DNA of 20,000 bases from an uncultured virus (IMG/VR IMGVR_UViG_3300024346_000052) (IMGVR_UViG_3300024346_000052), one strand, 5' to 3'. Positions 2,996 through 19,354 are shown, counted from the stretch's first letter. Made by a program: numbers and translations. Notes: generated by a model not told the origin, from the letters alone.

Positions 2996-2996
2996 T

Positions 2997-4877: not shown

Positions 4878-5046
4878 TTTTATAAGGAAATTTTTTATTT
4901 AATTTTTCTCGTCTACCCGCACAGCCACAGTCCTTGCCTGTAACTTCACTAACTTTATCAACAACAGCTTTTATTCCAGTTGAAGTTGTAAAATTATGGA
5001 TACTATCTCCAAGACCTTTAGATTTTATATTAAAATTAAAACTCAT
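4870..5046 (-). CDS. Small hypothetical phage protein, 58 aa (SKGLGDSI...TGIK...DCGC..RREKLN)
   Basis: Hand translation: MSFNFNIKSKGLGDSIHNFTTSTGIKAVVDKVSEVTGKDCGCAGRREKLNKKFPYKNV. Start overlaps the upstream stop (TAATG) and its end overlaps the next start. Confidence 0.75.
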   Translation of the reverse strand: MSFNFNIKSKGLGDSIHNFTTSTGIKAVVDKVSEVTGKDCGCAGRREKLNKKFPYKNV

Positions 5047-5402: not shown

Positions 5403-5802
5403 ACTCTCCTGTTGCATCAAATGACGGGCATGCCTTGTTAGCAAACTCGTTGTGTGAATAAATAACTGCCTCTGGGTACATTGCTTTAAGTGTTTTAAGC
5501 ACATGTAAGAGACTATCTTTCTGTTTTTGTGTTCTAGTATCCTTCGGAGTCTTACCATCTGCTTCAACGCCTCCGCAATAACATAATCCTATGCTATTTC
5601 TATTATGTGATTTGCAATGAGCTCCGATTCGGTCTATATCTCTACCTTTTTTAATAGTTCCATCTAACTCGATGTAGAAATGATAGCCAATGTCGCTCCA
5701 ACCCCTAGAATTTATATGCCAGTCTTTAATTGTTTCAACTGGTATATCTTGTCCTTCTCTAGTAGCAGAGCAATGTATTATAATTTCTTTTACTAATCTC
5801 AT
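5389..5802 (-). CDS. Endolysin, N-acetylmuramoyl-L-alanine amidase (Amidase_2, T7 gp3.5-like), 137 aa
   Basis: Motifs IIIHCSAT, GWSDIGYHF, GAHCKSHN..SIGLCYCGG, HNEF..KACPSF carry the His/His/Cys zinc ligands of T7 lysozyme-type amidases. Confidence 0.95.
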   Translation of the reverse strand: MRLVKEIIIHCSATREGQDIPVETIKDWHINSRGWSDIGYHFYIELDGTIKKGRDIDRIGAHCKSHNRNSIGLCYCGGVEADGKTPKDTRTQKQKDSLLHVLKTLKAMYPEAVIYSHNEFANKACPSFDATGEYENI

Positions 5803-5954
5803 TTTTTCTTATGTAATAGTAACCACTTGTGTACAGTGTACCCTATGGTTAAAGTTAACAATAAAATCTCTAACATTGGCTCCACCCAGTTTAATGTGGC
5901 TAAAGCAAATGAAGATGCATTTAATAAATACAACTTCAAATCTTCCATATCCAT
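5799..5954 (-). CDS. Small membrane protein, 51 aa, possible holin
   Basis: Hand translation: MDMEDLKLYLLNASSFALATLNWVEPMLEILLLTLTIGYTVHKWLLLHKKK. Hydrophobic with a basic C-tail, two possible starts (M1/M3) and an ATGA overlap with the endolysin. Confidence 0.6.
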   Translation of the reverse strand: MDMEDLKLYLLNASSFALATLNWVEPMLEILLLTLTIGYTVHKWLLLHKKK

Positions 5955-6124
5955 TATCTATTTGCGTTTAACACTGCGTTTCCTTTATAAGGTATGTTAT
6001 CTATTCTTCTTAACGTTGGCGTTATCATAGCGTTATTTGATTTCATAACTCTAGTTCCTAAATGACCACATCCACATTCTAATTTTACTCCTGCAGGTTT
6101 TTGTGTTTCTCCGTAACTTGGCAT
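5954..6124 (-). CDS. Small hypothetical protein, 56 aa
   Basis: Hand translation MPSYGETQKPAGVKLECGCGHLG...NAVLNANR; TAATG coupling to the next gene. Confidence 0.6.
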   Translation of the reverse strand: MPSYGETQKPAGVKLECGCGHLGTRVMKSNNAMITPTLRRIDNIPYKGNAVLNANR

Positions 6125-6129
6125 AATTT

Positions 6130-7506
6130 TTATTTTTTAAATTTACTTAAAGTTTTAGCTAAATTAGCTCTTTGTTGTGTTTTTTTACCGTACTCTCCAT
6201 CAGCAGCGGCATTTAATTTACTTTTTGGTATTTTCTCTCCTTCTGCAACACCTAAATCTTTTCTAAGTTGACCTGGTTTTTTAATAGCTCCCTTTATCCA
6301 GTTTTTTTTTAATGGAGTTTTAGCTCTATCTACTCTATCACCCATCCTATTAGCATAATCTTTATTAGAAATTCTATTTTTATTGTAGGTTGTGCTAGGA
6401 ACCATATTAGGAGTTCCATCGGCTTTAGTTCCAATATTTTCCATAGTAGTTTTGCCAGGTCTCATTTCGTAACTAACAGTATCTTTTTTATCAAGACTTA
6501 TAGACTGAGCTAGTGGGTATGCAGATTTTGCTGGCCTATATTTTTCCCCTGATTTTTGTTTTTTAGGTGGATCTATATGCATATTATTAAATGGTGATTT
6601 CTCAGCTCCACCCATAGCATCCATATTAGGATTCATCGGGTCTGATGGAGGATTAGGTTGCCCCATAGAGCTTGCTATATTAGAGAACATTTGCTCATTT
6701 TGAGATTGTGAAGCTGGCACTTTAGACGGATCCTGGTAATTGTTAGGATCATTTATAAGTACATTGGAATTAACAGGTCTTCCCGCTCTGTTTGGCTGAG
6801 CTGGAGTTTGCATAGGATCTTGCATGCCATCCGCATTGCCCTGAACGCCTGTAGTGTTTGGATTTAAATAATTCATAGGTGATTTTTCTTTACGATATTG
6901 TTTTCTTGCTTTTTTTGTTTCTAAATTAGCTTGTTTTTGTGAAATTCCTTTTTCTTTTGTAAAGCTAAAAGTTGGAATATTACTTTCTTTTTTCGGGAAC
7001 CATCCGCCATCTGGTGCACCTTTGTTATCAAAATAATCACGTGAGTTAGTTTTATTTACTGCACCTGGCTTATTAATTGTTAGTTTTTCAGGACCATCTT
7101 GTCTTGATCTTCTTATATTGTCTTTTTTCTCATTAAACTTTTCTTTAGCACCCGACTTCATTGCTTTTCTTTCTTTTTTGGCTTGCCTAAACTGATCAAT
7201 AGGATTTTTGCCAAAGTCTTGTTCAAAAGAATTACCCACGTTAATAGGCTTTCTAGTATTCATAGGTTTAATACCACCACCTTTATTTGTGACAGTTCCA
7301 TCTAAGTCATTAATGTTTGAAGGTATATTTCCAGGTATTGATCCAGTTGGATCTTGCTGTGAAGTATTTGGCTGTATATTGTTGTTAGAGGTTATTTGCT
7401 GCTGACTACCATCTGGTAATATATTAACCCTGGTATTTAAGTTAGCGAATACATCTTGAGTTCTTGACTTTATTTTTTTAGGGCTTTCGTAATCATTTTC
7501 TGCCAT
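6130..7506 (-). CDS. Hypothetical low-complexity protein, 458 aa, basic C-terminal domain (possible internal virion protein)
   Basis: ORF track. N/P/Q/K-rich; ends in NWIKGAIKKPGQLRKDLGV..GEKIPKSKL..AA...QRANLAKTL, a motif type recalled from small basic phage proteins. Confidence 0.7.
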   Translation of the reverse strand: MAENDYESPKKIKSRTQDVFANLNTRVNILPDGSQQQITSNNNIQPNTSQQDPTGSIPGNIPSNINDLDGTVTNKGGGIKPMNTRKPINVGNSFEQDFGKNPIDQFRQAKKERKAMKSGAKEKFNEKKDNIRRSRQDGPEKLTINKPGAVNKTNSRDYFDNKGAPDGGWFPKKESNIPTFSFTKEKGISQKQANLETKKARKQYRKEKSPMNYLNPNTTGVQGNADGMQDPMQTPAQPNRAGRPVNSNVLINDPNNYQDPSKVPASQSQNEQMFSNIASSMGQPNPPSDPMNPNMDAMGGAEKSPFNNMHIDPPKKQKSGEKYRPAKSAYPLAQSISLDKKDTVSYEMRPGKTTMENIGTKADGTPNMVPSTTYNKNRISNKDYANRMGDRVDRAKTPLKKNWIKGAIKKPGQLRKDLGVAEGEKIPKSKLNAAADGEYGKKTQQRANLAKTLSKFKK

Positions 7507-7943
7507 TACTTGTCTTTTTTAAAATTAATTATTGCTTTTTTTAATACTTTATCAGAATAACAACCACCTTTCATTATTTTGTTTGAAATTGGTGACAAAG
7601 GTATTTCATCCTCACCCATCATTATTCTATATATTTTAGCAATGAGTTGTTTGCATTTAAAAGAAGCTTTATATAAATGGTATTTTTGAGTTGTATGATT
7701 TCTTTTTCTCCAAACAATTATCCAGTTTTCTTTTAACAGTCTGTTCCATCTTCTGTTGTCCCAGCTGTAATAATAAGAGCCCTGTTTAAAATCTTGCTTA
7801 CTAAACATACCGATACTATCTAAGTATATCAACAACTCTAAGTCAGCATCGGTTATATTATTGTTTTTACAAGCCCATTTTCTTATTACCCTGTAATGCT
7901 TTAATATATTTAACTCTCTTATCTCTTTAGAAGTTATTCTCAT
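7506..7943 (-). CDS. Hypothetical basic protein, 145 aa (possibly winged-helix DNA-binding)
   Basis: ORF track; coupled to groES (ATGA) and to the downstream gene. ITDADLELLIYL...RLLKENWI...LYKAS is loosely MarR/wHTH-like (inference). Confidence 0.6.
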   Translation of the reverse strand: MRITSKEIRELNILKHYRVIRKWACKNNNITDADLELLIYLDSIGMFSKQDFKQGSYYYSWDNRRWNRLLKENWIIVWRKRNHTTQKYHLYKASFKCKQLIAKIYRIMMGEDEIPLSPISNKIMKGGCYSDKVLKKAIINFKKDK

Positions 7944-8200
7944 AAAACTATAACAACATCTTGCTCTTTTATTATTTTAAAAGAATCTCCGTCTATGTCA
8001 ACAGAAAAACCAGCATGCCTATCGTAAAATATAATATCTTTATTTTTAATAAAATTAACTTCTTCTCCTTTTATTAAAACTTCAGCTTTTTTATATCTTA
8101 TATCTTCTCTAGATTTATCAGACAATATTAAACCACCTTTTGTTTCAGTGGTTTTGTTTTTTGTTTCTTTTATTACTATATATTTACCTACTGCTTTCAT
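7940..8200 (-). CDS. groES: Co-chaperonin GroES (Cpn10), phage-encoded, 86 aa
   Basis: MKAVGKYIVIK...TKGGLILS mobile-loop motif...IIKEQDVVIVL; adjacent to groEL. Confidence 0.92.
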   Translation of the reverse strand: MKAVGKYIVIKETKNKTTETKGGLILSDKSREDIRYKKAEVLIKGEEVNFIKNKDIIFYDRHAGFSVDIDGDSFKIIKEQDVVIVL

Positions 8201-9735
8201 GCTCTTAAGTTATTAATTACACAATCAGTTGATAATATAGTAGATGCTACTGAAGCCGCATTTTTAAGAGCACTTTTAGTTACTAGTAAAGGATCTATTA
8301 TTCCGGACTTTACCATACTTACCGTTTTACCTGTAACCACATTTAATCCTTCACCTTCAACATTAGAGTTGGTATAATCAGTAATACCAGCGTTATTCAA
8401 TATAGTATTATATGGTGATTTAATAGCGTTAAACAATATTTCTTCTGACGAGTTGTCAGCATTAATATTAGTTGCAGCGTTAAGCAACGCTATGCCACCC
8501 CCTGGCACTATACCTTCTTTTATTGCGGCTTTTGTAGCACAAATAGCATCTTCTACTCTATCTTTTTTTTCTTTAAGTTCTATTTCAGAATTTGCTCCAA
8601 CTTTTATTACTGCAACTTTAGCTAATAACCTAGCAATTCTTCTTTCAATCTTTTCTTTAACCAAAGAGTTTTTTTCTTTAATTATTTTTTTTCTTAAAAA
8701 ATTAATTAAATCATTAACTTCGTTTGGCATTTCATCTACCTGTATTAAAGTTTCTGAAATACTACTTATTGTTTTTTTGCAAGAACCCAATAGGCTTAAA
8801 TCTATCAAATCCATATCATCGCCTAAGTCTTCATTTACAACAGTAGCTCCTGTTATTAAGGATAAGTCTTCAAGCATTTCTTTTCTATTAATACCGTAAA
8901 CTGGAGAATTTATTACGTTTACCTTTATATTGCCTTTAACTTTATTCATTGCTAAAGCGCTTGTAACTTGAGGATCTAATTCTCCTATTATTAATAAAGA
9001 TTTTTTTTCAGAAATAATATACTCTAATACGTTTTGTATTTTTCTTATATTATCTATTTTACTATCTAATATTAAAATTAATGGTTTGTGCAGCTCACAA
9101 GTTTTATCTTCTTTGTTTGTAATGAAATGATCTAAAACACAACCTTGTTCATATTGAACCCCCTCTATTCTTTCTACTTCCGTTATTGGACTTTCGTGTG
9201 TTTCCATTAATACAACCCCCGTATTATCTACACTTTTAAAAGCCTCACTTATTAATAGTCCTAAATCATTATCATTATTGGCTGAAATTGTAGCTACTTG
9301 TTTAATTTTATCTTCAACAACTGGTGTTGAGATTTTTTCAAGATATTGCACTACTTTTTCTACAGCCGTATTTATTCCTTCTTTTAGTTCCCTAGAGGTT
9401 ATATCCCTGCTTTTATTAGCTTCCATTAATATAGCATGTGCTATTACAGTAGCTGTTGTTGTTCCGTCTCCTGCTTCTTTAACTGTTTTTCTAGCCGCTT
9501 CTTTTATTAATTTAGCTCCCATGTTTTCAACGGGATCTAGTAGAACTATAGAATTAGCAACAGTAACACCATCTTTTGTTATTATAGGATTTCCACTGTT
9601 GTCTTCCATTATCACACACTTACCACTAGCTCCAAGAGTGGAGCTAACGGCTTGTGTTAATTTATTTATTCCATTGAATATTTTATTTCTAGCATCTTCA
9701 CCGAAGTTTAAATGCTTTACAATTGTATCACTCAT
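8197..9735 (-). CDS. groEL: Chaperonin GroEL (Cpn60), phage-encoded, 512 aa
   Basis: ITKDGVTVA, AGDGTTTATV, KDRVEDAICATKAAIKEGIVPGGG, GIIDP motifs; lacks the C-terminal GGM tail. Confidence 0.97.
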   Translation of the reverse strand: MSDTIVKHLNFGEDARNKIFNGINKLTQAVSSTLGASGKCVIMEDNSGNPIITKDGVTVANSIVLLDPVENMGAKLIKEAARKTVKEAGDGTTTATVIAHAILMEANKSRDITSRELKEGINTAVEKVVQYLEKISTPVVEDKIKQVATISANNDNDLGLLISEAFKSVDNTGVVLMETHESPITEVERIEGVQYEQGCVLDHFITNKEDKTCELHKPLILILDSKIDNIRKIQNVLEYIISEKKSLLIIGELDPQVTSALAMNKVKGNIKVNVINSPVYGINRKEMLEDLSLITGATVVNEDLGDDMDLIDLSLLGSCKKTISSISETLIQVDEMPNEVNDLINFLRKKIIKEKNSLVKEKIERRIARLLAKVAVIKVGANSEIELKEKKDRVEDAICATKAAIKEGIVPGGGIALLNAATNINADNSSEEILFNAIKSPYNTILNNAGITDYTNSNVEGEGLNVVTGKTVSMVKSGIIDPLLVTKSALKNAASVASTILSTDCVINNLRA

Positions 9736-9769
9736 TTTATTAAATTAAATATAATTTGTTTTTTGAATA

Positions 9770-10063
9770 TTACTCGAAGGTTTTAATTACTTTCGGTCCA
9801 TTGGTAAACTCTAGCTTTTTAGCATAATGTTCAATAGAACTATCTATTGCTTGCTCTGCTCCACCTATAGTTTCTCTTCTGGTAACATCAATCCATATTT
9901 CAGGATCATCGATATCTCTATATTCGGTCTGTAAGAATCCATTAGGTAATTGAACTATTCTCCAGTTTTTTTTCTGTGAAATGTGTTTCCATACTTTTAT
10001 GGTATCTTCTGTTGGTTGTGGTGCACTAGACCACGTATTAGTGCGGGTATATAAAAACGTCAT
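9770..10063 (-). CDS. Hypothetical protein, 97 aa
   Basis: ORF track; on the operon strand with normal composition and an A-rich upstream region. Confidence 0.7.
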   Translation of the reverse strand: MTFLYTRTNTWSSAPQPTEDTIKVWKHISQKKNWRIVQLPNGFLQTEYRDIDDPEIWIDVTRRETIGGAEQAIDSSIEHYAKKLEFTNGPKVIKTFE

Positions 10064-10128
10064 TGTATTTGGTTTTAAGTTAAACGTTGGTTATTTATAT
10101 TATCACTTGATAATTCGGTTAATTCTAT

Positions 10129-11214
10129 TTATGGTTCTACTGCAGGAGTTATATCCACCCAGGTATGTGTGTCTTCTCCAAGTATTACTCCTTGAAAGTT
10201 TTTTGACGAAGAGTTGTATCTAATCATACCTAAAGTTTCTGAATCTGCGGCTGGCCTTTGGCTTAAAGTTCCTCCAGGTATAATTATACCATTAGTAGAA
10301 TCTGTTGAAGATTTAAAAGCACTAGATGTTTGACTATCGTCTTGCATAAAAACACTGTACCTTGCTAGACTAGCATTACCACTTCCGCCCTTATTAACAT
10401 CCAAAACTCCTGTAATTGAACTTGCACCTACATCTACAGCTAATTCATTAGATGCGCCTGAATATATTATACCACCGTTAGCTAAGTTATCTGTTTGAAT
10501 AGTTCCTGATCCTATTTGAACACCACTACCAGCTATTAAAGAAGATGTAGAAGTTATAGTTATTTCGGCTGAGCTAGTTGCGGTTAGCGTAATCCCTGTT
10601 CCTCCTGTTAATTTCACCGAGGAGTCTGTCCCAGTCGATGCATCTAAGTTTAAAGGCACAGAGTCATCGATTTTAGATCCTGCTTGTATAGTATATGTGT
10701 CGCCAGGAGTTGGTGTGATCCACTCTACTTGTCCACCGCTTGCACTAGCTGACAACAGTTGGTTAGCGCTTCCAAATTCGCCATTTGAATCGTGAATCTT
10801 GTTAGAATAAAGTGCATCTACTTGTAAGTAAGCATTCTGAGTTATAATAACACTTGGTGCGTTTATGTCTTGTTTGACAAGAGACGATGATAAAACTCCA
10901 GAAGTGTTACTCCACAACGGTAAAAAATTTGATTCTGGACCATTAATTGTTGGTACTGCTATAGTATCGAAAGTTATCGAATTTGCTCCCGCATTAAAGT
11001 CTATATCTATTGTATTACTGCCACTTAGCTTTATGTCTCCAGTTTGTCCGTTTTGCCCGTTTATATCTGTTATTTTATCCACAACGTCTATAACTGTTTT
11101 TATACCACTTACTGATATAGATTTAGTCGGCTTACCATTAGCCGAAACATCTGAAACAACCATAACGTCTGACATGCTAGCTTCTGTTACTGGGTAAGAA
11201 TATATTATTGCCAT
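10129..11214 (-). CDS. Putative tail fibre/appendage protein, 361 aa (MAIIYSYP family)
   Basis: S/G/T-rich; C-terminal GIIIPGGTLSQRP...GMIRYN...FQG pattern typical of fibre proteins; N-terminus shared with the neighbouring gene. Confidence 0.65.
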   Translation of the reverse strand: MAIIYSYPVTEASMSDVMVVSDVSANGKPTKSISVSGIKTVIDVVDKITDINGQNGQTGDIKLSGSNTIDIDFNAGANSITFDTIAVPTINGPESNFLPLWSNTSGVLSSSLVKQDINAPSVIITQNAYLQVDALYSNKIHDSNGEFGSANQLLSASASGGQVEWITPTPGDTYTIQAGSKIDDSVPLNLDASTGTDSSVKLTGGTGITLTATSSAEITITSTSSLIAGSGVQIGSGTIQTDNLANGGIIYSGASNELAVDVGASSITGVLDVNKGGSGNASLARYSVFMQDDSQTSSAFKSSTDSTNGIIIPGGTLSQRPAADSETLGMIRYNSSSKNFQGVILGEDTHTWVDITPAVEP

Positions 11215-11230
11215 TTTGTTTTTTTTTAAA

Positions 11231-12253
11231 TTAAATTGCTTGTGATTTTAAACATACCCAATTATTTCCATCATAAATTAAAATACCTGAACAACCATTT
11301 CCAACTTCATCAACGTCAAATATCATCTCTCCTGCTGTTGGTGAGCTAATTTCAGAATTTCCTAAATTTGGCATTACTATACCATTTGTAACTTTACTAG
11401 AGTTAGAGTCATTTGCGCTAGAACCACCTCCAACACCAACTAAAACACCACCAGCGTTAAGTGAACTTCCGTTGTAAATACTAGGAGCTGCCCAATTAGC
11501 TCCTGTAGAAGAACTACTATTAGAAGTTAATACTAAACCGTTTTGGCCAGCAGTAGTTCCACCCATAAGAGCAGTAGTTAGCGATACAGCTATTTGGTTA
11601 CTAGCATCAAAACCTAATCCCACTCCTAAATCAGCGCTTATTGTATCAGGAACTGTTGCGGTGTTAAATTCAATACCATTACCAGCTTGATAAGAGCTAC
11701 CACCGCTGCCTGAAGAATTTATAGTTATAGTTCCAGCAGCATTGTTAGCGGTTAAAGATGTGCTACCGCTAGGTATTAAAGTTATTGTTTGCACCGTAGA
11801 ACTACTATCTGTTAAGTCTAAGTCTACGCTTGTAGACGTCGATGCATTTTGTTTTGTAGATATTGTATAAGTACTTCCACCGCCTGACGCAGTGCCAAAA
11901 TCATAGCCTGTTTTTGAAGCGTTAACCTTTAATATATCACCTACGTTAGCAGCGGCAAGATCAGTTGTGTCTTTTCCAGTTCCACCGCCAACTCCTGATA
12001 CAGTTCCACCTACTACTATAGTACCAATGCCAACAGAAGGATCAGCACTACCCGCTGTTTGGGTTGGTGTTAATCCTATGCTGTCATTAAATAGTATTCT
12101 ATCGACATTACCGCCAGGTGTAGACGCTTTTAAATTTGCAACTTGTTGTAATTTAATGGTTCTAACAGCAAAAGAATCGCCAGGCACTGTTACTAACAGT
12201 TCTTCTGCGCCTGTTATTACACCCTCGCTTGGATATGAATATATTATTGCCAT
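11231..12253 (-). CDS. Putative tail fibre/appendage protein, 340 aa (MAIIYSYP family)
   Basis: G/S/T-rich; C-terminal GIVMPNL...SPTAGEMIFD...LIYDGNNW; first 8 aa identical to those of 10129-11214. Confidence 0.65.
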   Translation of the reverse strand: MAIIYSYPSEGVITGAEELLVTVPGDSFAVRTIKLQQVANLKASTPGGNVDRILFNDSIGLTPTQTAGSADPSVGIGTIVVGGTVSGVGGGTGKDTTDLAAANVGDILKVNASKTGYDFGTASGGGSTYTISTKQNASTSTSVDLDLTDSSSTVQTITLIPSGSTSLTANNAAGTITINSSGSGGSSYQAGNGIEFNTATVPDTISADLGVGLGFDASNQIAVSLTTALMGGTTAGQNGLVLTSNSSSSTGANWAAPSIYNGSSLNAGGVLVGVGGGSSANDSNSSKVTNGIVMPNLGNSEISSPTAGEMIFDVDEVGNGCSGILIYDGNNWVCLKSQAI

Positions 12254-12264
12254 TTTTATTTAAT

Positions 12265-13512
12265 TTAGTCGTTTCTTTTAACTACGTATTTACCTTTTTT
12301 ATCTTCTTTAACTCTAGAATAATCTTGAACGCTAAGTTGTGGGTAATTTTTAGGATTATTACCTTTGTTTTTAAATTTAGCCTCAAAATCATCTTCACTA
12401 ACATAGTCTCCAGTGTTGTAATTGCTAAAACCTCTCACCGTATCGCTTTTCATAGCTTTTTCTTTAGGTTTTCCGTTCATGTTTAATGGTGAATGACTAC
12501 CACCTCTCATGTGTTTTAACACCTTACTTGCTCCCATGTGTGACAAAGCTTTAGGTTCTTGATCAATTACCGGTCCACCGTAAGATAAGTCTCTTGACAT
12601 ATTCATAGGAGAATCTTTTTTACCGTACATTTTAGCAGGAGAAGCCTCTATTTTAGCTTTTAATTCAGCTGGTAAATTATTTTGCTTACCAACTAGTTCT
12701 TTTTCAAGAGGTGATTTCTTACCATACATGTTCATAGGAGATTTATCATCAGCCCTTTCGTTTTCTAAATAATGTAATCTAGCCGATGCTGATAAATTCT
12801 TATTATAAGCTTCTTTGTTATCATAAGCTTTACCCGTCATCTGAACAGGAGATGCTTTTTTAGCTTTTTTTCTACTAGAATATCCTTGAGGGTTATTCAT
12901 TCTTATACTTCCATCATCTCTAAACTTACGATCACCAGTGCTCATTACTTTCTTTTTCTTTTGACCACTTGCTGTTTTAGTTTTCACTTTAACTGTAGCT
13001 TGTTTTTTACCTGATTTAGTTTTATATCTTTTGATTTTAACTTTAACCTTAGTACCACTATCAGTTGTATACCTGTCTTTTCTTTTTCCAGCTTTTTTCA
13101 TGTCCTTCATTTTAGCAGGTGATTTAGTCTTTTTGTCAACTTTTTCTAACTTCAACTGAATTTTAGCAGCTTTAGTAAATCCTTTATCCATTCTTTTATC
13201 AGCTTTTTCTTCTGATCCTTCACTTTTTCTAGGCTTTAAATTACCAGCTCTACCTTTAAAACTAGATAAGTTATTATTCTTATCTATTTTATTTATTAAC
13301 TTAGCTCTTTTTTTAGGAGATCCATCTGCTTTTTTTAAACCTTTAACAGCTTTCTTCTTATATTTTTTATTAAGCTTTGTTAATTGTTCTTTTTTCTTAG
13401 CTTCATTTTTAAAAGCTTTTTTTAAAGTCTTGTCTTGTTTTTTACCGGTTGTTGATTGAACTTTCTTTTCAAGCTTATCACCTTTCTTTCTAAGTCGATC
13501 TAATTTCTTCAT
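12265..13512 (-). CDS. Highly Lys-rich protein with repeated SPxx(M) motifs, 415 aa (histone H1-like composition; possible DNA-condensing/core protein)
   Basis: ORF track. Very K-rich N-half; SPKK, SPAKM x2, SPVQM, SPMNM x2, SPLEK, SPLNM. First gene of the leftward arm. Confidence 0.7.
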   Translation of the reverse strand: MKKLDRLRKKGDKLEKKVQSTTGKKQDKTLKKAFKNEAKKKEQLTKLNKKYKKKAVKGLKKADGSPKKRAKLINKIDKNNNLSSFKGRAGNLKPRKSEGSEEKADKRMDKGFTKAAKIQLKLEKVDKKTKSPAKMKDMKKAGKRKDRYTTDSGTKVKVKIKRYKTKSGKKQATVKVKTKTASGQKKKKVMSTGDRKFRDDGSIRMNNPQGYSSRKKAKKASPVQMTGKAYDNKEAYNKNLSASARLHYLENERADDKSPMNMYGKKSPLEKELVGKQNNLPAELKAKIEASPAKMYGKKDSPMNMSRDLSYGGPVIDQEPKALSHMGASKVLKHMRGGSHSPLNMNGKPKEKAMKSDTVRGFSNYNTGDYVSEDDFEAKFKNKGNNPKNYPQLSVQDYSRVKEDKKGKYVVKRND

Positions 13513-13858
13513 AATTTCTTTTAATACATGTATTATTATTTTTTGTTTAAGTACTTAAATATATAAGTTACATATTATATTTATTATTTACAATTGAACA
13601 ATAGTGACATTAGCCTGTTACTCTATACCTTATACTGCTATTGTCATACTTTTAAAAAAGTTGTAAAATATATAGAACCTAGGTGTTGCCCCCCTCCCTA
13701 TCCATTCCTTTAATCTAAGGAAAGTCAAATATACAAAGCGGGCCCCTCCTGTTTCATTTCTTATCTCGAATCTTTATATATTCTCATATGAGCTCTCGTC
13801 TGTATATGAATCGATGTCTCGTCTTCCCCCACATTCTTGACTTTTACTATTATAATAA
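13513..13858. promoter_or_regulatory. Divergent intergenic control region (possible origin or terminus/packaging region)
   Basis: Coding strand switches here. Contains inverted repeat TGACATTAGC/GCTATTGTCA (13605-13646), C-runs and a TCTCGTCT direct repeat (13794, 13817). Confidence 0.5.
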
Positions 13859-13890
13859 TACAATGTCAATACGATCTTCATTAGATAATA
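13859..13890 (+). promoter_or_regulatory. Repeated promoter-like motif copy 1
   Basis: TACAATGTCAATACGA-TCTTCATT-AGATAATA. Confidence 0.7.
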
Positions 13891-13919
13891 TAATCAACTA
13901 ACAAATAAATAATAACAAT

Positions 13920-14012
13920 ATGAATAACTTAAATAAAATCCTATCACTCGACATCGTACTACCTACATTCTTTATAACATATGAATTAATATTCTTACTA
14001 ATAATTTCTTAG
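13920..14012 (+). CDS. Hydrophobic microprotein, 30 aa
   Basis: MNNLNKILSLDIVLPTFFITYELIFLLIIS; directly downstream of motif copy 1 with an A-rich leader. Confidence 0.4.
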   Translation: MNNLNKILSLDIVLPTFFITYELIFLLIIS

Positions 14013-14075
14013 ATATGTTTACATGTCGCGCAGTACTTCTAGCTAATAAATAACATATAAACAAATATACACTTT

Positions 14076-14107
14076 TACAAACTAAATACGACAACAACAA
14101 GATAATA
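14076..14107 (+). promoter_or_regulatory. Repeated promoter-like motif copy 2
   Basis: TACAAACTAAATACGA-CAACAACA-AGATAATA. Confidence 0.8.
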
Positions 14108-14138
14108 ATAATAACTAAACTAAATAAATAATAAATAT

Positions 14139-14375
14139 ATGAAAACTAATAAACTAACAACTAAAAGATTTGTAATAAGAAAATCTTTACTCGGTACAAA
14201 TACAGTAATAACATTTACTAATAAGAAAGAAGTAACATTCACTTATGATCACGATGAAATTTACTCAACATTTCAACAAAAGTTTGAAGAAATGGCTTGT
14301 TTTCAACAGTACAAATCTTATACAAATTCTAATACTGTTCCAAAATTCTGTAGAGAATTAAGTACTCAGTCTTAA
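14139..14375 (+). CDS. Hypothetical early protein, 78 aa
   Basis: ORF track; follows motif copy 2. Confidence 0.75.
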   Translation: MKTNKLTTKRFVIRKSLLGTNTVITFTNKKEVTFTYDHDEIYSTFQQKFEEMACFQQYKSYTNSNTVPKFCRELSTQS

Positions 14376-14444
14376 AAACTAAAAGTCGACGTTGATAGTA
14401 ATACTTTAACGACTATAAATAACACGAACATATTACTCAACACA

Positions 14445-14488
14445 TAGCCGAAATGGTTGGAAGTGAGATTCGATTTCTCACTCGGTTA
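14445..14488 (+). ncRNA. tRNA-like mini-structure (acceptor-like stem + T-arm, no anticodon arm)
   Basis: TAGCCGA/TCGGTTA 7-bp stem, linker AATGGTTGGAA, GTGAGA/TCTCAC stem with T-loop TTCGATT. Confidence 0.5.
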
Positions 14489-14518
14489 CAAACTAATTAC
14501 GATAGTCGTAAGATAATA
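14487..14518 (+). promoter_or_regulatory. Repeated promoter-like motif copy 3
   Basis: TACAAACTAATTACGA-TAGTCGTA-AGATAATA. Confidence 0.8.
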
Positions 14519-14542
14519 ATAATAACTATAAAAATAAATAAT

Positions 14543-14743
14543 ATGTATCACTCTAATTCCCCTTCAAACTGGTCATGGAAAAAAGCTTTTGACGAAATGA
14601 ACAAGTATGTTCATCAAACAGAAATGACTCAACAATCTATAAATCACGTACTAAATTATCCTGGTGAAGCTAATGGTGTCTTTATGTCACTAAGTAAATC
14701 ACAACAAGATGATGTTTACGATATACTAAATCAAATAATATGA
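14543..14743 (+). CDS. Hypothetical early protein, 66 aa (MYHSNSPSNWSWKKAF...)
   Basis: Start moved from 14453 to the ATG downstream of motif copy 3 in an A-rich context. Confidence 0.7.
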   Translation: MYHSNSPSNWSWKKAFDEMNKYVHQTEMTQQSINHVLNYPGEANGVFMSLSKSQQDDVYDILNQII

Positions 14744-14820
14744 ATAAAGAACAAAAACTATTTGTAGCAATATTAATTTGCTCAATACTAATAATAATAA
14801 CAGATGTCGTTACAAACTAA
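14740..14820 (+). CDS. Hydrophobic microprotein, 26 aa
   Basis: MNKEQKLFVAILICSILIIITDVVTN; ATGA overlap with the upstream gene; stop lies inside motif copy 4. Confidence 0.45.
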   Translation: MNKEQKLFVAILICSILIIITDVVTN

Positions 14821-14842
14821 ACACGACAAATAATAGATAATA
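14811..14842 (+). promoter_or_regulatory. Repeated promoter-like motif copy 4
   Basis: TACAAACTAAACACGA-CAAATAAT-AGATAATA; ATG at 14848. Confidence 0.8.
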
Positions 14843-14847
14843 ATAAT

Positions 14848-15063
14848 ATGAATATAAAACAACATAAGCAAAAGCTTAACAAAAAATACAATCAAGCGAT
14901 TGTCGATAAAGTACTAAACTCAATGTGGTCAAAGCTCGGTAACGAGTTAGATGATGTTATGATGTCAGAAGGTTACTCTGAAACTAACAATGAAATGTTT
15001 GACGATCAAGATTGTTACTCAGGTATTATACTAAACATTATGAAGTTACAGTGTGATGAATAA
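14848..15063 (+). CDS. Hypothetical early protein, 71 aa
   Basis: ORF track; directly after motif copy 4. Confidence 0.7.
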   Translation: MNIKQHKQKLNKKYNQAIVDKVLNSMWSKLGNELDDVMMSEGYSETNNEMFDDQDCYSGIILNIMKLQCDE

Positions 15064-15113
15064 GTTTAACTGACGAGAGTTTAATACTCGAAACTACGCA
15101 AGTAGTCTTAAAC
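15064..15113 (+). ncRNA. Hammerhead ribozyme, type I
   Basis: Stem I GTTTAA/TTAAAC; core CTGACGA; stem II GAGT-TTAAT-ACTC; GAAA; stem III CTAC-GCAA-GTAG; GTC cleavage triplet, predicted cut after 15107. Confidence 0.92.
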
Positions 15114-15129
15114 AAATAATTAACTAAAT

Positions 15130-15387
15130 ATGAAAAAAATAATAATGACTATAGGTGCATTTGCACTAATGTCTTCGGCAAGTAATAAGAATTACCCTTC
15201 TGATCAACTATGTTATGCTATGTTGAACTTATCTCAAATGCAATTAGAAATGTGGGAAGATCTTGAAAACGGTAAACTTACTCAATCTCAAGCTGAAAAC
15301 TGGAATGAAATAATTGAAGAAACTTATATATTCATTGAAGATTATTACAAGCATTTACCTGATGGAACATTAGTAGATAACTTTTAA
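15130..15387 (+). CDS. Hypothetical protein with signal-peptide-like N-terminus, 85 aa
   Basis: MKKIIMTIGAFALMSSAS followed by an acidic domain. Confidence 0.7.
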   Translation: MKKIIMTIGAFALMSSASNKNYPSDQLCYAMLNLSQMQLEMWEDLENGKLTQSQAENWNEIIEETYIFIEDYYKHLPDGTLVDNF

Positions 15388-15419
15388 TACAAACTGAATA
15401 CGAATAACAATAGATAATA
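15388..15419 (+). promoter_or_regulatory. Repeated promoter-like motif copy 5
   Basis: TACAAACTGAATACGA-ATAACAAT-AGATAATA. Confidence 0.8.
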
Positions 15420-15442
15420 TAATTAAATAAAATAAAATAAAT

Positions 15443-15625
15443 ATGAATAAATCAGAAAAAACGGCAATTACGTCAATTACAGGAATACTAATGATAGTAT
15501 TAGTAGCAATAGCAACATCTTGCTCACCTACACAAACAGCTTATAAATCAGGAGTTAAAAAGAAATTTAACGGAAAACTAGTAAGTCACGCGCATAACTA
15601 CAACGCTTGTCCAGCTTATCAATAA
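15443..15625 (+). CDS. Putative small lipoprotein, 60 aa
   Basis: Hydrophobic stretch ILMIVLVAIA then TSC (lipobox-like Cys). Confidence 0.6.
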   Translation: MNKSEKTAITSITGILMIVLVAIATSCSPTQTAYKSGVKKKFNGKLVSHAHNYNACPAYQ

Positions 15626-15634
15626 AATATAACT

Positions 15635-15805
15635 ATGACAGAACAACAAGCAATTGAAGCAATCGCTAATGATATACAAGATGGTATCTACGGTTGGACA
15701 CAGAAATGTGGAACAGAGTGGCAAAAGTGGACATATTCACTAATGCAAGCTAAGAAAATATATAATGGTGATTTAATAATAAATTTAAGTATAGAAAATG
15801 AATAG
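15635..15805 (+). CDS. Hypothetical protein, 56 aa
   Basis: Hand translation MTEQQAIEAIANDIQDGIYGWTQKCGTEWQKW...SIENE; fills the gap. Confidence 0.65.
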   Translation: MTEQQAIEAIANDIQDGIYGWTQKCGTEWQKWTYSLMQAKKIYNGDLIINLSIENE

Positions 15806-15983
15806 AGATAGAGAATGGGATTTTATGGAAGAACATAGAGAGCTAATGGAAACAGAAGATGAAAGATCTTTACTAGCAACTTTTGCACTAGTAGTCAGAG
15901 AACTCGCTATAAAGTTTCCTAATGATCAAGAATTAGGTGCAGAAGTAAGAAAATTAATACAAGATTATAAACTAAATACATGA
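15798..15983 (+). CDS. Hypothetical protein, 61 aa
   Basis: ORF track; contains FPNDQELGAEVRKL; overlaps both neighbours. Confidence 0.7.
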   Translation: MNRDREWDFMEEHRELMETEDERSLLATFALVVRELAIKFPNDQELGAEVRKLIQDYKLNT

Positions 15984-16207
15984 AAAAAATAATAATAGCA
16001 GCAAGTTTTTTATGCTTATTAAGTTTTAACACTAAAACTGATACAGTAAAAAACAAAATATTTCAAGCAACGCAAGTACAAACAACACTAAGAGAAGAGT
16101 TGTATTGGATTTATATAGACAATCCTACACTAGAAAACAAAAGTAATCATGTAGATGCTTTATATGTAGAGACTTTATTAAAAGAAATTCTAAATGATAC
16201 AATTTAA
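15980..16207 (+). CDS. Hypothetical protein with signal-peptide-like N-terminus, 75 aa
   Basis: MKKIIIAASFLCLLSFN; ATGA coupling to the upstream gene. Confidence 0.65.
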   Translation: MKKIIIAASFLCLLSFNTKTDTVKNKIFQATQVQTTLREELYWIYIDNPTLENKSNHVDALYVETLLKEILNDTI

Positions 16208-16229
16208 AAACGAACACTAACAGATAATA
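16198..16229 (+). promoter_or_regulatory. Repeated promoter-like motif copy 6
   Basis: TACAATTTAAAAACGA-ACACTAAC-AGATAATA; ATG at 16235. Confidence 0.7.
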
Positions 16230-16234
16230 TATAT

Positions 16235-16378
16235 ATGAAAACAATTAAATTTTACCCAAGCAATAGGTCACTAATAAGATTAGATGACAAAATGATAAAA
16301 GGTTACACTATAGATAGTATACCAGACAACATAAACTCATGGTTTAACTATAAAGGTCTAACTTACGTAACAAGTTGA
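16235..16378 (+). CDS. Hypothetical protein, 47 aa
   Basis: Hand translation MKTIKFYPSNRSLIRLDDKMIKGYTIDSIPDNINSWFNYKGLTYVTS. Confidence 0.65.
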   Translation: MKTIKFYPSNRSLIRLDDKMIKGYTIDSIPDNINSWFNYKGLTYVTS

Positions 16379-16392
16379 TATAAACCCAACTG

Positions 16393-16437
16393 ACGAAACT
16401 AATAGCTCATACTTGATCAGTATGGGCTTTTCGTGGT
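16393..16437 (+). ncRNA. Conserved RNA hairpin element, copy A
   Basis: ACGAAA-CTAAT-AGCTCATACT-TGATC-AGTATGGGCT-TTTCGT-GGT, then ATG at 16438. Confidence 0.6.
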
Positions 16438-16878
16438 ATGAAATGTAACCACAATATTCCACAAGCAAGATTAAATCTTGGCTATAAAGTATGTGTCGAT
16501 TGTAGTACAGTAGAAAAACTCGGCTGTATTGACACTATAAATCATAAAACTGGCAATACTATTCAAGTAATGTCACGTGAAGATGCAGAAAAAGCCAATA
16601 AGTTAACAAAACGAGCAGGTTTTGGTATACTAAGATCTATGTCTAATGGTTCAAGTCAACGTAAAGCTAATATGATCACTGGATGCTCAACTACTTTTGT
16701 AGGTAACGACGTAATGTTCGAGCAAGTAGGTAAAACTTACATGGATTATTTAGAAGTTGATGAAGAAATTGCCCAGCGCTATCTCGATCGAGCGCTAAAC
16801 AACGTAGAAATATCTCAATTACAATATAATAAGATAAAATTACTTTGTTACAGTCTAAATACGATCAATAATAGATAA
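16438..16878 (+). CDS. Zinc-finger-like protein, 146 aa (DksA/TraR-type finger-like N-terminus)
   Basis: C...IPQARLNLGYKVCVDC resembles the IP.ARL...C..C part of DksA/TraR fingers. Confidence 0.6.
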   Translation: MKCNHNIPQARLNLGYKVCVDCSTVEKLGCIDTINHKTGNTIQVMSREDAEKANKLTKRAGFGILRSMSNGSSQRKANMITGCSTTFVGNDVMFEQVGKTYMDYLEVDEEIAQRYLDRALNNVEISQLQYNKIKLLCYSLNTINNR

Positions 16879-16880
16879 TA
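16849..16880 (+). promoter_or_regulatory. Repeated promoter-like motif copy 7
   Basis: TACAGTCTAAATACGA-TCAATAAT-AGATAATA. Confidence 0.75.
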
Positions 16881-16894
16881 TATTTAAATAATAT

Positions 16895-17041
16895 ATGAAT
16901 AAAATAACAAAAAAGCTCGAAAACTTGTACTCTTGGACAAAATTCTATCAAGATCGAGGTAATAAAGAAGCAATTAGAAAATGTCAAACTGAAATCGCAC
17001 AGTTAAAACAAGCGTTTAATCAATTAAAGTCTAAAAAATGA
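16895..17041 (+). CDS. Hypothetical protein, 48 aa
   Basis: Hand translation MNKITKKLENLYSWTKFYQDRGNKEAIRKCQTEIAQLKQAFNQLKSKK; ATGA coupling to the next gene. Confidence 0.65.
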   Translation: MNKITKKLENLYSWTKFYQDRGNKEAIRKCQTEIAQLKQAFNQLKSKK

Positions 17042-17328
17042 AAGATACTAACGCTATTGAAAAAGCACTAGAAAATAAGTGTAAACAAGAAATAAACCAA
17101 GTAGTCAACGTTTTTATGAACGAACTCGAAGTAAAAATCAGAGGTGAATATAGTTCAGCTAATTATTACGACTTTACACCACCAAACAACGATGGCAAGA
17201 AATCTTTTCACGTAATGGGTACTGAACAATTAAAAAATGTACTATTTAGAATGATTTCAAATGCTCATCTTGAGTCTATGGTTGCTTTAAAATCAAAAGA
17301 ATTAATTAAAAAACTTGAATTAGTATGA
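17038..17328 (+). CDS. Hypothetical protein, 96 aa
   Basis: ORF track; coupled to both neighbours. Confidence 0.7.
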   Translation: MKDTNAIEKALENKCKQEINQVVNVFMNELEVKIRGEYSSANYYDFTPPNNDGKKSFHVMGTEQLKNVLFRMISNAHLESMVALKSKELIKKLELV

Positions 17329-17630
17329 AAAATAGAACACTAAACGAAATTAGACAATCAAAAGAGTATCAACAAGCTGTTAAATCAGGAAATAATCTAG
17401 ATTTAAATGTTGATGTAGCTATAGACGAAATAGTAGATAATCTCAATACTCACTTGTTTGATATAATATTTCAAACAGTAAATGATGAAATGCATAAGTA
17501 TACTGTGTTTCAAGAACAAACTTATCTAACTCCTGAAGGCATGGATATGTTTGAAGAGCAATGGTTCGAGTTTTATCATGAGCATCACGGTGAAATTCTA
17601 GGTAGAATAATGAAAACTCTTACAAACTAA
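17325..17630 (+). CDS. Hypothetical acidic protein, 101 aa
   Basis: ORF track; stop lies inside motif copy 8. Confidence 0.7.
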   Translation: MKNRTLNEIRQSKEYQQAVKSGNNLDLNVDVAIDEIVDNLNTHLFDIIFQTVNDEMHKYTVFQEQTYLTPEGMDMFEEQWFEFYHEHHGEILGRIMKTLTN

Positions 17631-17652
17631 ATACGAACACTAAAAGATAATA
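17621..17652 (+). promoter_or_regulatory. Repeated promoter-like motif copy 8
   Basis: TACAAACTAAATACGA-ACACTAAA-AGATAATA; ATG at 17658. Confidence 0.8.
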
Positions 17653-17657
17653 TAAAC

Positions 17658-17879
17658 ATGTTATACGATAAATTAAAACCACATATCAAAGCCAAAATGA
17701 AAGAAAATGCTGAAGAGTATAAATCTGTCAATTGGATTATTGATGAACTAAAACAAAAAAACAATTATTCTGACTTAACTATTGAGCAAATAAGATCTAT
17801 CTGTACATTTGGCGATGTATGGTATTATGATCTTACGCAGAAAGAGTTAATATGGGGTGATTGGTTAACAAATAAATAA
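17658..17879 (+). CDS. Hypothetical protein, 73 aa
   Basis: ORF track. Confidence 0.7.
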   Translation: MLYDKLKPHIKAKMKENAEEYKSVNWIIDELKQKNNYSDLTIEQIRSICTFGDVWYYDLTQKELIWGDWLTNK

Positions 17880-17881
17880 AT

Positions 17882-18232
17882 ATGAACGAAGAAAAACTAG
17901 CTTTAGAAACATTAAAAGCACTAGGTGCTAAAGACACATCAAGTCCATCTCAAATAAAAAGAGGTACAACTTGCTTTACATTACCAACAGGTGACTGCGT
18001 GTCTGAACACAAAACAGGTTATATCAGAAAAAATCTACTAAATAAAAACGGTGGAATATATACTTGTTATCAACTAAATCCACAATATAAGACAATTGAA
18101 AAGTCTATAAGTTGGAATGGTAAAGAGCGTGTTGACGAAAGAAACAACAGGATGTTGATATGGAATAGAGCTGAAAGACTAAAAAGATTAGTCCTTTACA
18201 CAATAAAACAAATAAATAAACTAAATAAATAA
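17882..18232 (+). CDS. Hypothetical basic protein, 116 aa
   Basis: ORF track. Confidence 0.7.
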   Translation: MNEEKLALETLKALGAKDTSSPSQIKRGTTCFTLPTGDCVSEHKTGYIRKNLLNKNGGIYTCYQLNPQYKTIEKSISWNGKERVDERNNRMLIWNRAERLKRLVLYTIKQINKLNK

Positions 18233-18242
18233 ACTAAAAAAC

Positions 18243-18689
18243 ATGGAAGAATTAACCGAAGAAAGAATAATAGAATTAGTAAAAGATCACTTTGAATTAG
18301 AAATATCAACTGATATAATGAATTTTGAAAATCGTGATTTTATGATATACAGTGAAAGTACAGCAGATGGCTACGAAGTATTTATTGCTACACATGACCC
18401 AAGAAACCCATCAATATGTGAAGAAGTGCACTATTACGATAGTGATTTGTCTAAAATTTTTACAGATCAAATAAGCTATGGAGATAAAAGCTTTTACATT
18501 TGCGATGGTATTTACGAAGATTGTTATTTTGATGAAGCTTTAGTAGAATTGTTTGCTGATGTTGTTGAAGAAGTAATTCAAGAAGCAGAAGATGGCGAAG
18601 GAAATACTAATATTACAAAAAAAGAAATAGAGATTTTAAAAATAAATCATGGCTTAAATGCCGAAGAAATTGAAGAAACTGTTAGTTAG
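18243..18689 (+). CDS. Hypothetical highly acidic protein, 148 aa
   Basis: ORF track; very D/E-rich. Confidence 0.7.
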   Translation: MEELTEERIIELVKDHFELEISTDIMNFENRDFMIYSESTADGYEVFIATHDPRNPSICEEVHYYDSDLSKIFTDQISYGDKSFYICDGIYEDCYFDEALVELFADVVEEVIQEAEDGEGNTNITKKEIEILKINHGLNAEEIEETVS

Positions 18690-18743
18690 TTAATAGTAGT
18701 TTAGTTTCCACGATAGTTACTGAATAGGCCCGACCAGCAGGTA

Positions 18744-18791
18744 ACGAAAGTAACACTAGCTCGTACTCAAAAGGTACGGGCTTTTCGTGGT
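18744..18791 (+). ncRNA. Conserved RNA hairpin element, copy B
   Basis: ACGAAA-GTAACACT-AGCTCGTACT-CAAAA-GGTACGGGCT-TTTCGT-GGT, then ATG at 18792. Confidence 0.6.
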
Positions 18792-19007
18792 ATGGATAAT
18801 ATAGGAATGATGAAAGCGTTTATGTTACTAGGTGACTTACACGCTACAAGCACAGACAAGTTAAGCGACTCAAGAGTTGCTTACAAAGAAAGAATAGCTT
18901 TTGCTACAATGAGAGCTAGTATACCTGATTGGCAACCGCCAAGTGACTGGAATAGTTTAACTAATAAAGAAAAACTAAACAGACTTGATAAACTACAATC
19001 AGTATAA
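18792..19007 (+). CDS. Hypothetical protein, 71 aa
   Basis: ORF track; C-terminal PSDWNSLTNKEKLNRLDKL. Confidence 0.7.
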   Translation: MDNIGMMKAFMLLGDLHATSTDKLSDSRVAYKERIAFATMRASIPDWQPPSDWNSLTNKEKLNRLDKLQSV

Positions 19008-19008
19008 T

Positions 19009-19040
19009 TACAAACTAAATACGATAACTAACAGATAATA
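19009..19040 (+). promoter_or_regulatory. Repeated promoter-like motif copy 9
   Basis: TACAAACTAAATACGA-TAACTAAC-AGATAATA; ATG at 19046. Confidence 0.8.
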
Positions 19041-19045
19041 TTATT

Positions 19046-19354
19046 ATGATGAACGAAGATGAAATAGAAAGACTAGCTGATTTATTGTTTGATAAAATAA
19101 TGGAAAAGCAAGAAGAAGCAGACAGAGAGTATGCTGAACAAATAGTTAAATTAGCTAAAGATGGTTATGTAGTAAATGACATAACTGACAAACTAGAACT
19201 CAATGAAGAAGAAAAACTAGTAGGTGAATTAGCTAAAATGCAGACAATTATGATGATTCTCGAAGACAGAGAGGAATATGAAAAAGCTGCAGTAATACAA
19301 AAGAAAATTAAAAATATAAACAAGAAATTAAACAATGGATCAGGAAGATATTAA
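19046..19354 (+). CDS. Hypothetical coiled-coil protein, 102 aa (C-terminal UVR-domain-like EEYEKAAVIQKKI)
   Basis: ORF track; the motif resembles the UvrB/UvrC interaction helix-hairpin. Confidence 0.65.
   Translation: MMNEDEIERLADLLFDKIMEKQEEADREYAEQIVKLAKDGYVVNDITDKLELNEEEKLVGELAKMQTIMMILEDREEYEKAAVIQKKIKNINKKLNNGSGRY

Follow-up and report, generated by a model that had tools for sequence, protein, structure and literature searches.

A promoter-like motif, a hammerhead ribozyme and two conserved structured RNA elements at gene junctions in the putative early arm of an uncultured phage

The early transcript of phage T7 contains RNase III sites, which are intercistronic stem-loops with an internal loop, and three promoters lie at the end of that arm. 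Mitochondrial transcripts are punctuated by tRNAs. Perreault et al. (2011, PMC3088659) proposed that hammerhead ribozymes flanking genes in phages and prophages split long phage transcripts into mRNAs of gene length; HHphage of haloviruses HF1/HF2, described in the same paper, has a mapped 5' end no more than 3 nucleotides (nt) from the cut, 13 nt before an early gene. Repeated promoter cassettes of T4-type phages are known as PeSLs (promoter-early stem-loops; Comeau et al. 2014, PMC4122927), and RNase P substrates include pseudoknotted tRNA-like structures, phage M3 RNA, P1/P7 C4 RNA and operon mRNAs (PMC11143913). We analyzed 20,000 nt of DNA from an uncultured virus (IMG/VR IMGVR_UViG_3300024346_000052), the whole of which is called the window, and found that gene junctions in its right arm are occupied by copies of a 31-base promoter-like motif, a hammerhead ribozyme, two copies of a hairpin element (H) that is mostly fused to a start codon, and a pseudoknot followed by a tRNA-like minihelix. 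Judging from the conservation, spacing and exchange of these elements among relatives, it is somewhat probable that they together set the starts of messages, by initiation or by RNA processing.

Each of these ingredients has known counterparts, namely phage hammerheads, PeSL cassettes, T7 RNase III sites and RNase P substrates. What is new is a motif specific to this family, two RNA motifs that lack an Rfam family, and the fact that they are used side by side and are partly interchangeable; narrow literature searches, which do not show absence from print, found no description of the combination. The ribozyme resembles the hammerheads of Perreault et al. in that it is of type I and occupies a gap between genes of a polycistronic phage region, with a start codon close downstream. 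In contrast to them, it occurs once per genome and in no cluster, is found in 5 of 16 syntenic relatives, has a minimal stem I of 6 A/U base pairs (bp), scores below the Rfam gathering value, and shares its arm with putative promoters and two other RNA devices. Like a PeSL, the motif is a short conserved regulatory repeat between small variable early genes, with gene gain, loss and replacement bordered by the repeats. However, its sequence is unrelated to that of PeSLs and it lacks a stem-loop of its own; the phage is not of the T4 type, and H and the minihelix are separate units, mostly fused to the start codon rather than to the promoter. When the arm was examined for a PeSL-type cassette, the motif was found at gene-content borders, and a stem-loop stood directly before it only at copy M3 (the minihelix) and in a few cases of H followed by a motif. 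PeSL cassettes of T4-type phages are reportedly also the subject of Arbiol et al. 2010 (PMC2839356). H is comparable to the T7 RNase III sites as an intercistronic stem-loop with an internal loop in early polycistronic RNA that is proposed to be left upstream while a new 5' end arises downstream. It differs from them in its surroundings, with many putative promoters, and in its three-way junction, hypervariable inserts, near-invariant sequence and position one base before AUG; its cleavage is a proposal.

The distribution of the elements along the right arm was regular. An earlier note on this DNA had stated that most intergenic gaps of the arm hold either the motif or a structured RNA, and that, apart from the three genes behind the hammerhead or a hairpin, genes without a motif are mostly tightly coupled to their neighbors. 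We found that every right-arm gap of at least 16 nt holds a motif copy, the hammerhead, H, or the tRNA-like element together with a motif copy, and that the remaining junctions are 10 nt or shorter or overlap. All four types of element were conserved in relatives, and each lay at a fixed distance from a start codon. Two very small hydrophobic open reading frames (ORFs), of 30 amino acids (aa) at 13921-14013 and 26 aa at 14740-14820, partly fill two of the gaps; the latter overlaps the previous stop codon by ATGA and ends within a motif copy.

The most informative junction was that of f9, an orphan gene. In 16 loci, f9 was preceded by H in 10, by a motif with ATG at +5 in 5 (one of which is too diverged for the motif pattern) and, in 1, was coupled directly to the upstream gene, whose stop codon was one base away. 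H and the promoter-like motif thus swap at this junction, whereas the hammerhead does not swap. The possibility that ribozyme, hairpin and promoter substitute for one another at the same junction is therefore borne out for H and the motif and fails for the hammerhead. The note's reading of the elements as a mixed toolkit for making mRNA 5' ends is plausible and partly supported: the elements themselves are real, conserved and placed at start codons. None of the three contexts of f9 requires a 5' leader, and this is our main reason to infer that H gives a 5' end at or next to the AUG. The swapping data also fit portable cassettes of some other function. One contig from RNA runs joins the end of H copy 2 to ATG 16895, which in the window is an ATG behind a motif copy.

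The hairpins that had been placed at 16393 and 18744 are both real and conserved; their extents had to be corrected (Table 1), and by their alignment they are copies of one conserved element, H. Positions 16403-16440 and 18757-18794 show 82% identity over 38 nt, and the fold energies of the two hairpins are -18.1 kcal/mol (z -4.5) for copy 1 and -29.4 kcal/mol (z -2.5) for copy 2. H consists of a closing helix P1 of 5-9 bp (CCACGAA/UUUUCGUGG type) and a conserved 10-bp hairpin P2 (AGCUCRUACU/GGUAYGGGCU), and ends one base before AUG. Its 17-mer tail was found in 40 stretches of viral contigs, and the canonical tail was present in all 16 loci ascertained solely by an upstream 18-mer. In related contigs, 44 distinct copies of H were identified, 38 of which are followed immediately 3' by the UG of an AUG; where enough flank was available, an ATG stood behind H in 37 of 42 contexts, before at least eight N-terminal gene families. 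Total length ranged from 38 to about 170 nt, with the helices intact throughout. The P2 loop was small in 33 of the 44 copies and carried an insert in 11, and P1 and P2 were separated by more than 20 nt in 24, as judged by a nearest-complement heuristic that can pick spurious strands. Of 43 copies, 19 had A-U and 24 had G-C at pair 6 of P2 and none had a mismatch there, and U.G was kept at pair 4 in 42 of 43, which points to RNA of the plus strand. In P1, compensatory variants occurred in two copies with a differing tail, CUACGAA/UUCGUAG (L032) and ACACGAAA/UUUUCGUGU (L024). The bases CGUGG, located beyond the U-run, pair only in read-through RNA. H matched no Rfam family.

Inserts in H were structured and hypervariable, from 0 to about 130 nt, and were confined to the P1/P2 junction and the P2 loop (loci L151-L190 and L338-L353; window 18716-18754). 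One and the same insert module could be found at the junction in one genome and in the loop in another, which gives the impression of small RNA modules that move within H. Just upstream of H, relatives carried a module of about 50 nt that looks by eye like a three-way junction (L191:5905-5960, L152, L179, L184 and L186) and has no Rfam match. In two relatives (L202:5281-5490 and L204:8560-8710), the slot behind a 47-aa gene is occupied by a different G+C-rich structured element of 130-190 nt, which replaces H, ends at the ATG and again has no match in Rfam; a search of Rfam with one inserted module of H and with H' returned nothing. Two other identities of H were considered and rejected. Copy 1 contains CUGACGA and could be taken for a second hammerhead; it has no stem II or GAAA in register, and CUGACGA is missing from the other copies of H. 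A DNA hairpin promoter of the N4 type is disfavored by the kept U.G, to which A.C would correspond on the template strand, and by the large size of the inserts.

The promoter-like motif has the pattern ACAAACTAAATACGA-N8-AGATAATA, and its downstream block contains a -10-like GATAAT. All nine copies counted earlier were recovered: with up to 3 mismatches allowed, the 31-base pattern matched 9 times in the window, 9 of 9 on the plus strand, against a mean expectation of 0.00 from 200 shuffles. Its exact form was found in at least 149 stretches of viral contigs. Five relatives of 59-68 kilobases (kb), rated 94-100% complete, contain 7-11 copies each on a single strand; most of these are clustered within about 5-6 kb, and 0-3 per genome lie outside the cluster. 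A reversed control gave 0. In 4 of the 9 window copies (M4, M6, M8 and M9), an ATG is located at exactly +5. Of the 439 distinct copies in the loci retrieved, 127 had their first ORF-opening ATG exactly 5 nt behind the motif; the others had distances of 1-88 nt, and 34 had no such ATG in reach. With ATG at +5, GATAAT occupies positions -12 to -7 relative to the A of ATG and agrees with TATAAT at 5 of 6 positions. If GATAAT is a -10 element, this spacing would place +1 on the A of AUG, and the copies with ATG at +5 thus suggest leaderless mRNAs. In relative G003, a gene for a phage sigma factor lies downstream of the last motif copy, and therefore the motif must be read before that sigma factor exists. 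The motif is probably a family-specific promoter-like signal read by a polymerase that is present before the phage sigma factor; promoter activity is what we infer from these features. Transcripts starting at M9 would reach a DNA ligase gene at 19335. A search for T7-like RNA polymerase (PF00940) found no match in the 5 relatives, and the control genomes were silent too. For the early transcripts of phi14:2, no common motif was available for comparison.

Copy M3 was exceptional in that, within the window, it alone has a palindrome or hairpin in the spacer. Relatives keep this palindrome with compensatory changes (CTACGA/TCGTAG, CAACGA/TCGTTG, CGACA-AAG-TGTCG and CTACA-AAG-TGTAG in the syntenic copies of L191-L203), which suggests an operator, or a hairpin within this single promoter. 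The ORF that had been listed from 14453 most likely begins at 14543, behind M3, where relatives start.

The third element, at 15064, had been proposed to be a hammerhead, and by core bases and covariation it is a real type I hammerhead. It aligned across the full RF00163 model with the core CUGACGAG..CGAAAC..GUC intact, scoring 25.8 bits (E 8.5e-5) in a 96-nt search, below the gathering score of 34. Rfam applied to the window at gathering level gave no match, and a 5.9-kb search by E-value missed the hammerhead as well; RF00163 also found no match in G002-G006 though G003 carries one, the search being too insensitive here. The catalytic core CUGACGA, GAAA and GUC is complete and was invariant in 15 of 15 aligned sequences except for N7 (C or U). 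Stems II and III are closed by loops and stem I is open, which makes three helices of type I. In the 15 aligned phage sequences, 96.9% of cells in helices were paired versus 82.0% in shuffles, with 0 of 500 shuffles reaching the observed value; all unpaired cells belong to a single row, L242, misplaced by one base in the alignment. Six pairs, three each in stems II and III, changed on both sides (37 cells), and sliding the partners reduced pairing to 27-41%.

Cleavage is predicted 3' of C15107 and would leave a 22-nt A/U-rich leader before ATG 15130, and the upstream stop codon abuts the first base of the ribozyme. A scan with a 5' 16-mer found 115 stretches, and the complete architecture was present in 17 of 91 distinct segments. 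Of 18 distinct contexts, 16 had an ORF-opening ATG 10-38 nt behind the hammerhead, sometimes preceded by a clear Shine-Dalgarno site, and in 10 an upstream ORF stopped 0-5 nt before it. Among the 16 syntenic loci, a motif copy never replaces the hammerhead, and where the hammerhead is absent the downstream gene family is coupled to its neighbor. Hammerheads of this subfamily, whose stem I is GUUUAA/UUAAAC, are also found ahead of start codons in phage contigs that are unrelated, some with clear Shine-Dalgarno sites, and the subfamily therefore looks like a portable intercistronic cassette.

The tRNA-like element that had been noted at 14445 is no tRNA gene: ARAGORN reported 0 tRNA genes and Rfam had no match at 14380-14500. 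What is conserved, by its covariation, is a pseudoknot plus an acceptor/T-arm minihelix (14384-14487). As in RNase P/Z substrates, the acceptor stem of the minihelix stacks directly on its T-arm (6+6 bp), the two 3' strands being contiguous; the T-loop-like UUCGAUU has 7 nt, and the minihelix is located between two cistrons. Unlike tRNA-type substrates, it has no D arm, anticodon arm or CCA and is not detected as tRNA or tmRNA; a linker of 11 nt, with an invariant AAAUGGUU, replaces the D and anticodon arms, so that the cloverleaf is reduced to acceptor-like stem and T-arm. In 16 sequences, 97.5% of the cells in the pseudoknot and minihelix were paired versus 91.0% in shuffles (0 of 500 reaching it), and seven pairs changed on both sides (reached in 1 of 500 shuffles), at least one in each of the four helices. 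Both helices of the minihelix were paired in 100% of cells and had compensatory pairs. Locus L329 has the same pseudoknot topology with unrelated sequence. The element was found between the first larger gene and M3 in 9 of 16 loci. Two other candidates were set aside. The order of helices in the pseudoknot is right for a ribozyme like that of hepatitis delta virus, but there is no room for P3; and the minihelix is not an attP copy of the 3' half of a host tRNA, its 5' strand being present and covarying.

Table 1. Positions of the regulatory elements of the right arm and of gene f9 in the window.
Feature	Position	Strand	Details
M1	13860-13890	+	3 mismatches, weakest copy; 30 nt before 30-aa ORF 13921-14013
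M2	14077-14107	+	0 mismatches; ATG 14139 after 31 nt
Pseudoknot (H-type)	14384-14441	+	S1 14384-14388/14410-14414; S2 14391-14403/14431-14441; compensatory changes in both
Minihelix T	14446-14487	+	6-bp acceptor-like stem, linker AAUGGUUGGAA, 6-bp T-arm, 7-nt loop UUCGAUU; abuts M3
M3	14488-14518	+	palindrome TTACGA-TAG-TCGTAA across N8 spacer; ATG 14543 downstream
M4	14812-14842	+	ATG 14848, 5 nt behind
Type I hammerhead	15064-15113	+	RF00163 alignment, core bases, covariation
M5	15389-15419	+	ATG 15443 after 23 nt
M6	16199-16229	+	3 mismatches; ATG 16235, 5 nt behind
H copy 1	16389-16437	+	P1 16389-16398/16429-16437; P2 16404-16413/16419-16428; ATG 16438 directly after
f9	16438-16878	+	146-aa orphan gene; no Pfam or PHROG family
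M7	16850-16880	+	overlaps end of gene 16438-16878; ATG 16895 after 14 nt
M8	17622-17652	+	ATG 17658, 5 nt behind
H copy 2	18708-18791	+	P1 18708-18713/18785-18790; junction branch 18716-18754; P2 18758-18767/18773-18782; U18791, then ATG 18792
M9	19010-19040	+	last copy; ATG 19046, 5 nt behind

A mechanism may be proposed from these features. The two-block family-specific promoter would start transcription many times along the arm and, where an ATG sits at +5, the message would begin on the A of AUG and be leaderless. Long promoter-less gaps would carry cis-acting RNA devices. The hammerhead would cut itself 22 nt before the AUG and separate the cistrons, giving the A/U-rich downstream leader a 5'-OH. 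An endoribonuclease of the host or the phage would cut H close to or at the 3' foot of its structure; the structure would remain with the upstream message and cap its 3' end, and the downstream gene would receive a 5' end at or next to its AUG, which is the same kind of end that a promoter with ATG at +5 would give. The pseudoknot and the mimic of a tRNA acceptor and T-arm, at the end of the first larger gene, would most likely be a signal for RNase P/RNase Z-type processing or for 3' protection. If this is true, one phage family would have four ways to set a message start (a promoter on the AUG, a ribozyme, a helix module fused to the start codon and a tRNA mimic), at least two of which swap at the same gene. 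The link of mRNA 5'-end formation to leaderless translation would then be directly testable in hosts that do not use Shine-Dalgarno sites, and two conserved RNA motifs that no Rfam family matches, H and the pseudoknot-minihelix, would be added. An extended form of this mechanism, which we consider quite unlikely, holds that H and the minihelix are both mimics of tRNA topology, in which an acceptor-like helix closes the structure, the 5' side holds a variable body, and a hairpin that stacks on the 3' strand is followed by one discriminator-like base. Both would be excised by host RNase P/Z-type enzymes so that the next cistron begins exactly at AUG, as a phage version of mitochondrial tRNA punctuation that makes leaderless mRNAs and is interchangeable with the AUG-starting promoter. 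P1 and P2 of H together have about 17 bp versus the 12 bp of the top half of a tRNA.

That mismatch in length is one of several observations that weigh against the mechanism. No transcript ends were seen: the related sequence in the four metatranscriptome runs comes as assembled contigs from related strains, with no molecule starts or ends listed. These contigs contain strain variants, and their gene content changes at joints that coincide with borders of the motif and of H. The compared sequences are from close relatives (mean column identity 72-85%), and the covariation counts partly reflect shared descent. The hammerhead falls short of the Rfam gathering value, its stem I consists of just 6 pairs rich in A/U and does not vary, the search pattern having fixed it, which leaves stems II and III to carry the covariation, and folded as a lone sequence it is no better than shuffles (z -0.78). 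As for H, close relatives keep it behind the same two upstream genes while the downstream gene changes, and in 5 of the 42 copies with enough flank there is no ATG behind it, some of these running into a motif copy, which fits a role at 3' ends. It also ends in a G+C-rich hairpin plus UUUU, and its only, weak match in Rfam (12.9 bits) is to the Thr-leader terminator hairpin. These features would agree with an intrinsic terminator or attenuator that ends the transcripts of the upstream block, in which case the single gene before the next motif would be expressed by read-through only, delayed or at low level, and no cleavage would occur. Each H of the window precedes exactly one gene and then a new motif copy, and the few copies of H directly before a motif have the terminator-then-promoter order seen in PeSLs (PMC4122927). 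However, P1 pairs five bases past the U-run with an upstream strand, with compensatory changes, and this helix can form only after the U-run has been passed. H tolerates inserts as long as about 130 nt at the junction and about 45 nt in the P2 loop, which is unexpected if fast folding of the hairpin matters. The AUG one base from P1 in 38 of 44 copies, before so many gene families, is also at odds with termination, and the U-run has only 4 U, such that a simple terminator scan needing 5 T in 8 did not call H. On balance, termination at H appears unlikely, though it deserves serious consideration.

H and the pseudoknot/minihelix might, without being cleavage signals, act as protein-binding translational operators by the AUG or as stable small RNAs in trans, such as a tRNA-mimicking decoy. 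The sequence of P2 is itself near-invariant, including the kept U.G, as would be expected for a specific ligand; the bases directly before the AUG are buried by P1; the invariant part of the minihelix linker could mimic the GG of a D-loop; and the neighboring M3 has an operator-looking palindrome. However, there is no candidate for a binding protein, as none of the 18 small ORFs of the arm has a Pfam or PHROG family, and hypervariable inserts speak against a compact, precisely shaped RNA acting in trans. Such a role also leaves unexplained why f9 takes either H or a promoter with ATG at +5, and we consider it quite unlikely. The promoter-like motif has its own difficulties. It lacks the -10 plus -35 arrangement of a sigma-70-type promoter: no TTGACA-like hexamer was found 16-18 bp upstream of GATAAT, the nearest being TTACAA at 20 bp, and a sigma-70 scan of the arm was not enriched (37 sites versus 37.4 in shuffles), so that the motif could in principle be a signal at the RNA level. 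It would then be a cleavage or ribosome-entry site in one long early transcript begun in the divergent region 13513-13860, closer to the layout of T7. Sigma-70-like sites do occur at the head of the arm, TTGTCA-17-TAAAAT (13641) and TTGACT-16-TACAAT (13837), and a cleavage site would likewise agree with the fixed distance of 5 nt to ATG. On the other side, sigma-70 matches are no commoner in the arm than in shuffles. Moreover, two conserved blocks separated by a fixed 8 free bases without conserved RNA pairing form a pattern of protein-DNA recognition, and GATAAT in its position before the ATG matches promoter geometry. An RNA-level role for the motif is thus very improbable in our estimate.

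The right arm, which starts at 13860 on the plus strand, has about 20 small genes followed by the DNA ligase gene. On the minus strand, the left arm (1-13512) has genes for tail-fibre-like proteins, an amidase, GroES and GroEL. The same layout was found in the five relatives. In G003, the small-gene arm continues into genes for the sigma factor, Erf, an exonuclease, a primase/helicase, thymidylate synthase and ribonucleotide reductase, and the structural genes are on the opposite strand. From this gene order and strand layout, the right arm of the window appears to be, by position, the arm of early genes in an uncultured marine phage whose genome measures about 60-68 kb. The host probably belongs to the Bacteroidota, because the closest relatives of the GroEL, about 40% identical, are from Maribacter, Flavobacterium and Bacteroides phages and because Shine-Dalgarno sequences are absent. 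No likeness to cultured phages was detected at the DNA level by megablast and blastn against a phage collection.

Additional observations concern the ends and the left part of the genome. The nearest record, G001, ends at window position 13685 and does not include the right arm; its end adjoins a C-rich stretch (region noted about 13685-13760). In relative G005, the same motif copy is present at both ends of the contig (155 and 61774). The early arm may begin where the genome physically ends, or at a terminal repeat. A GroES and GroEL pair is encoded by the phage itself (window 7940-9735, minus strand). In the 63-kb relative G003, an ORF of 3165 aa is located on the minus strand (G003:C1:10729-20226, locus L358); it had no PHROG family at E 1e-5 and no DFDxD motif of the RNA-polymerase type, and its sole DFD-containing stretch, FDFDD, looks HAD-like on reading the sequence. 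At the start of the window (1-2255, minus strand), a tail-fibre-like ORF that is open at its 3' end contains internal direct repeats of about 93-116 nt with 70-76% identity (families D5-D7 and D11).

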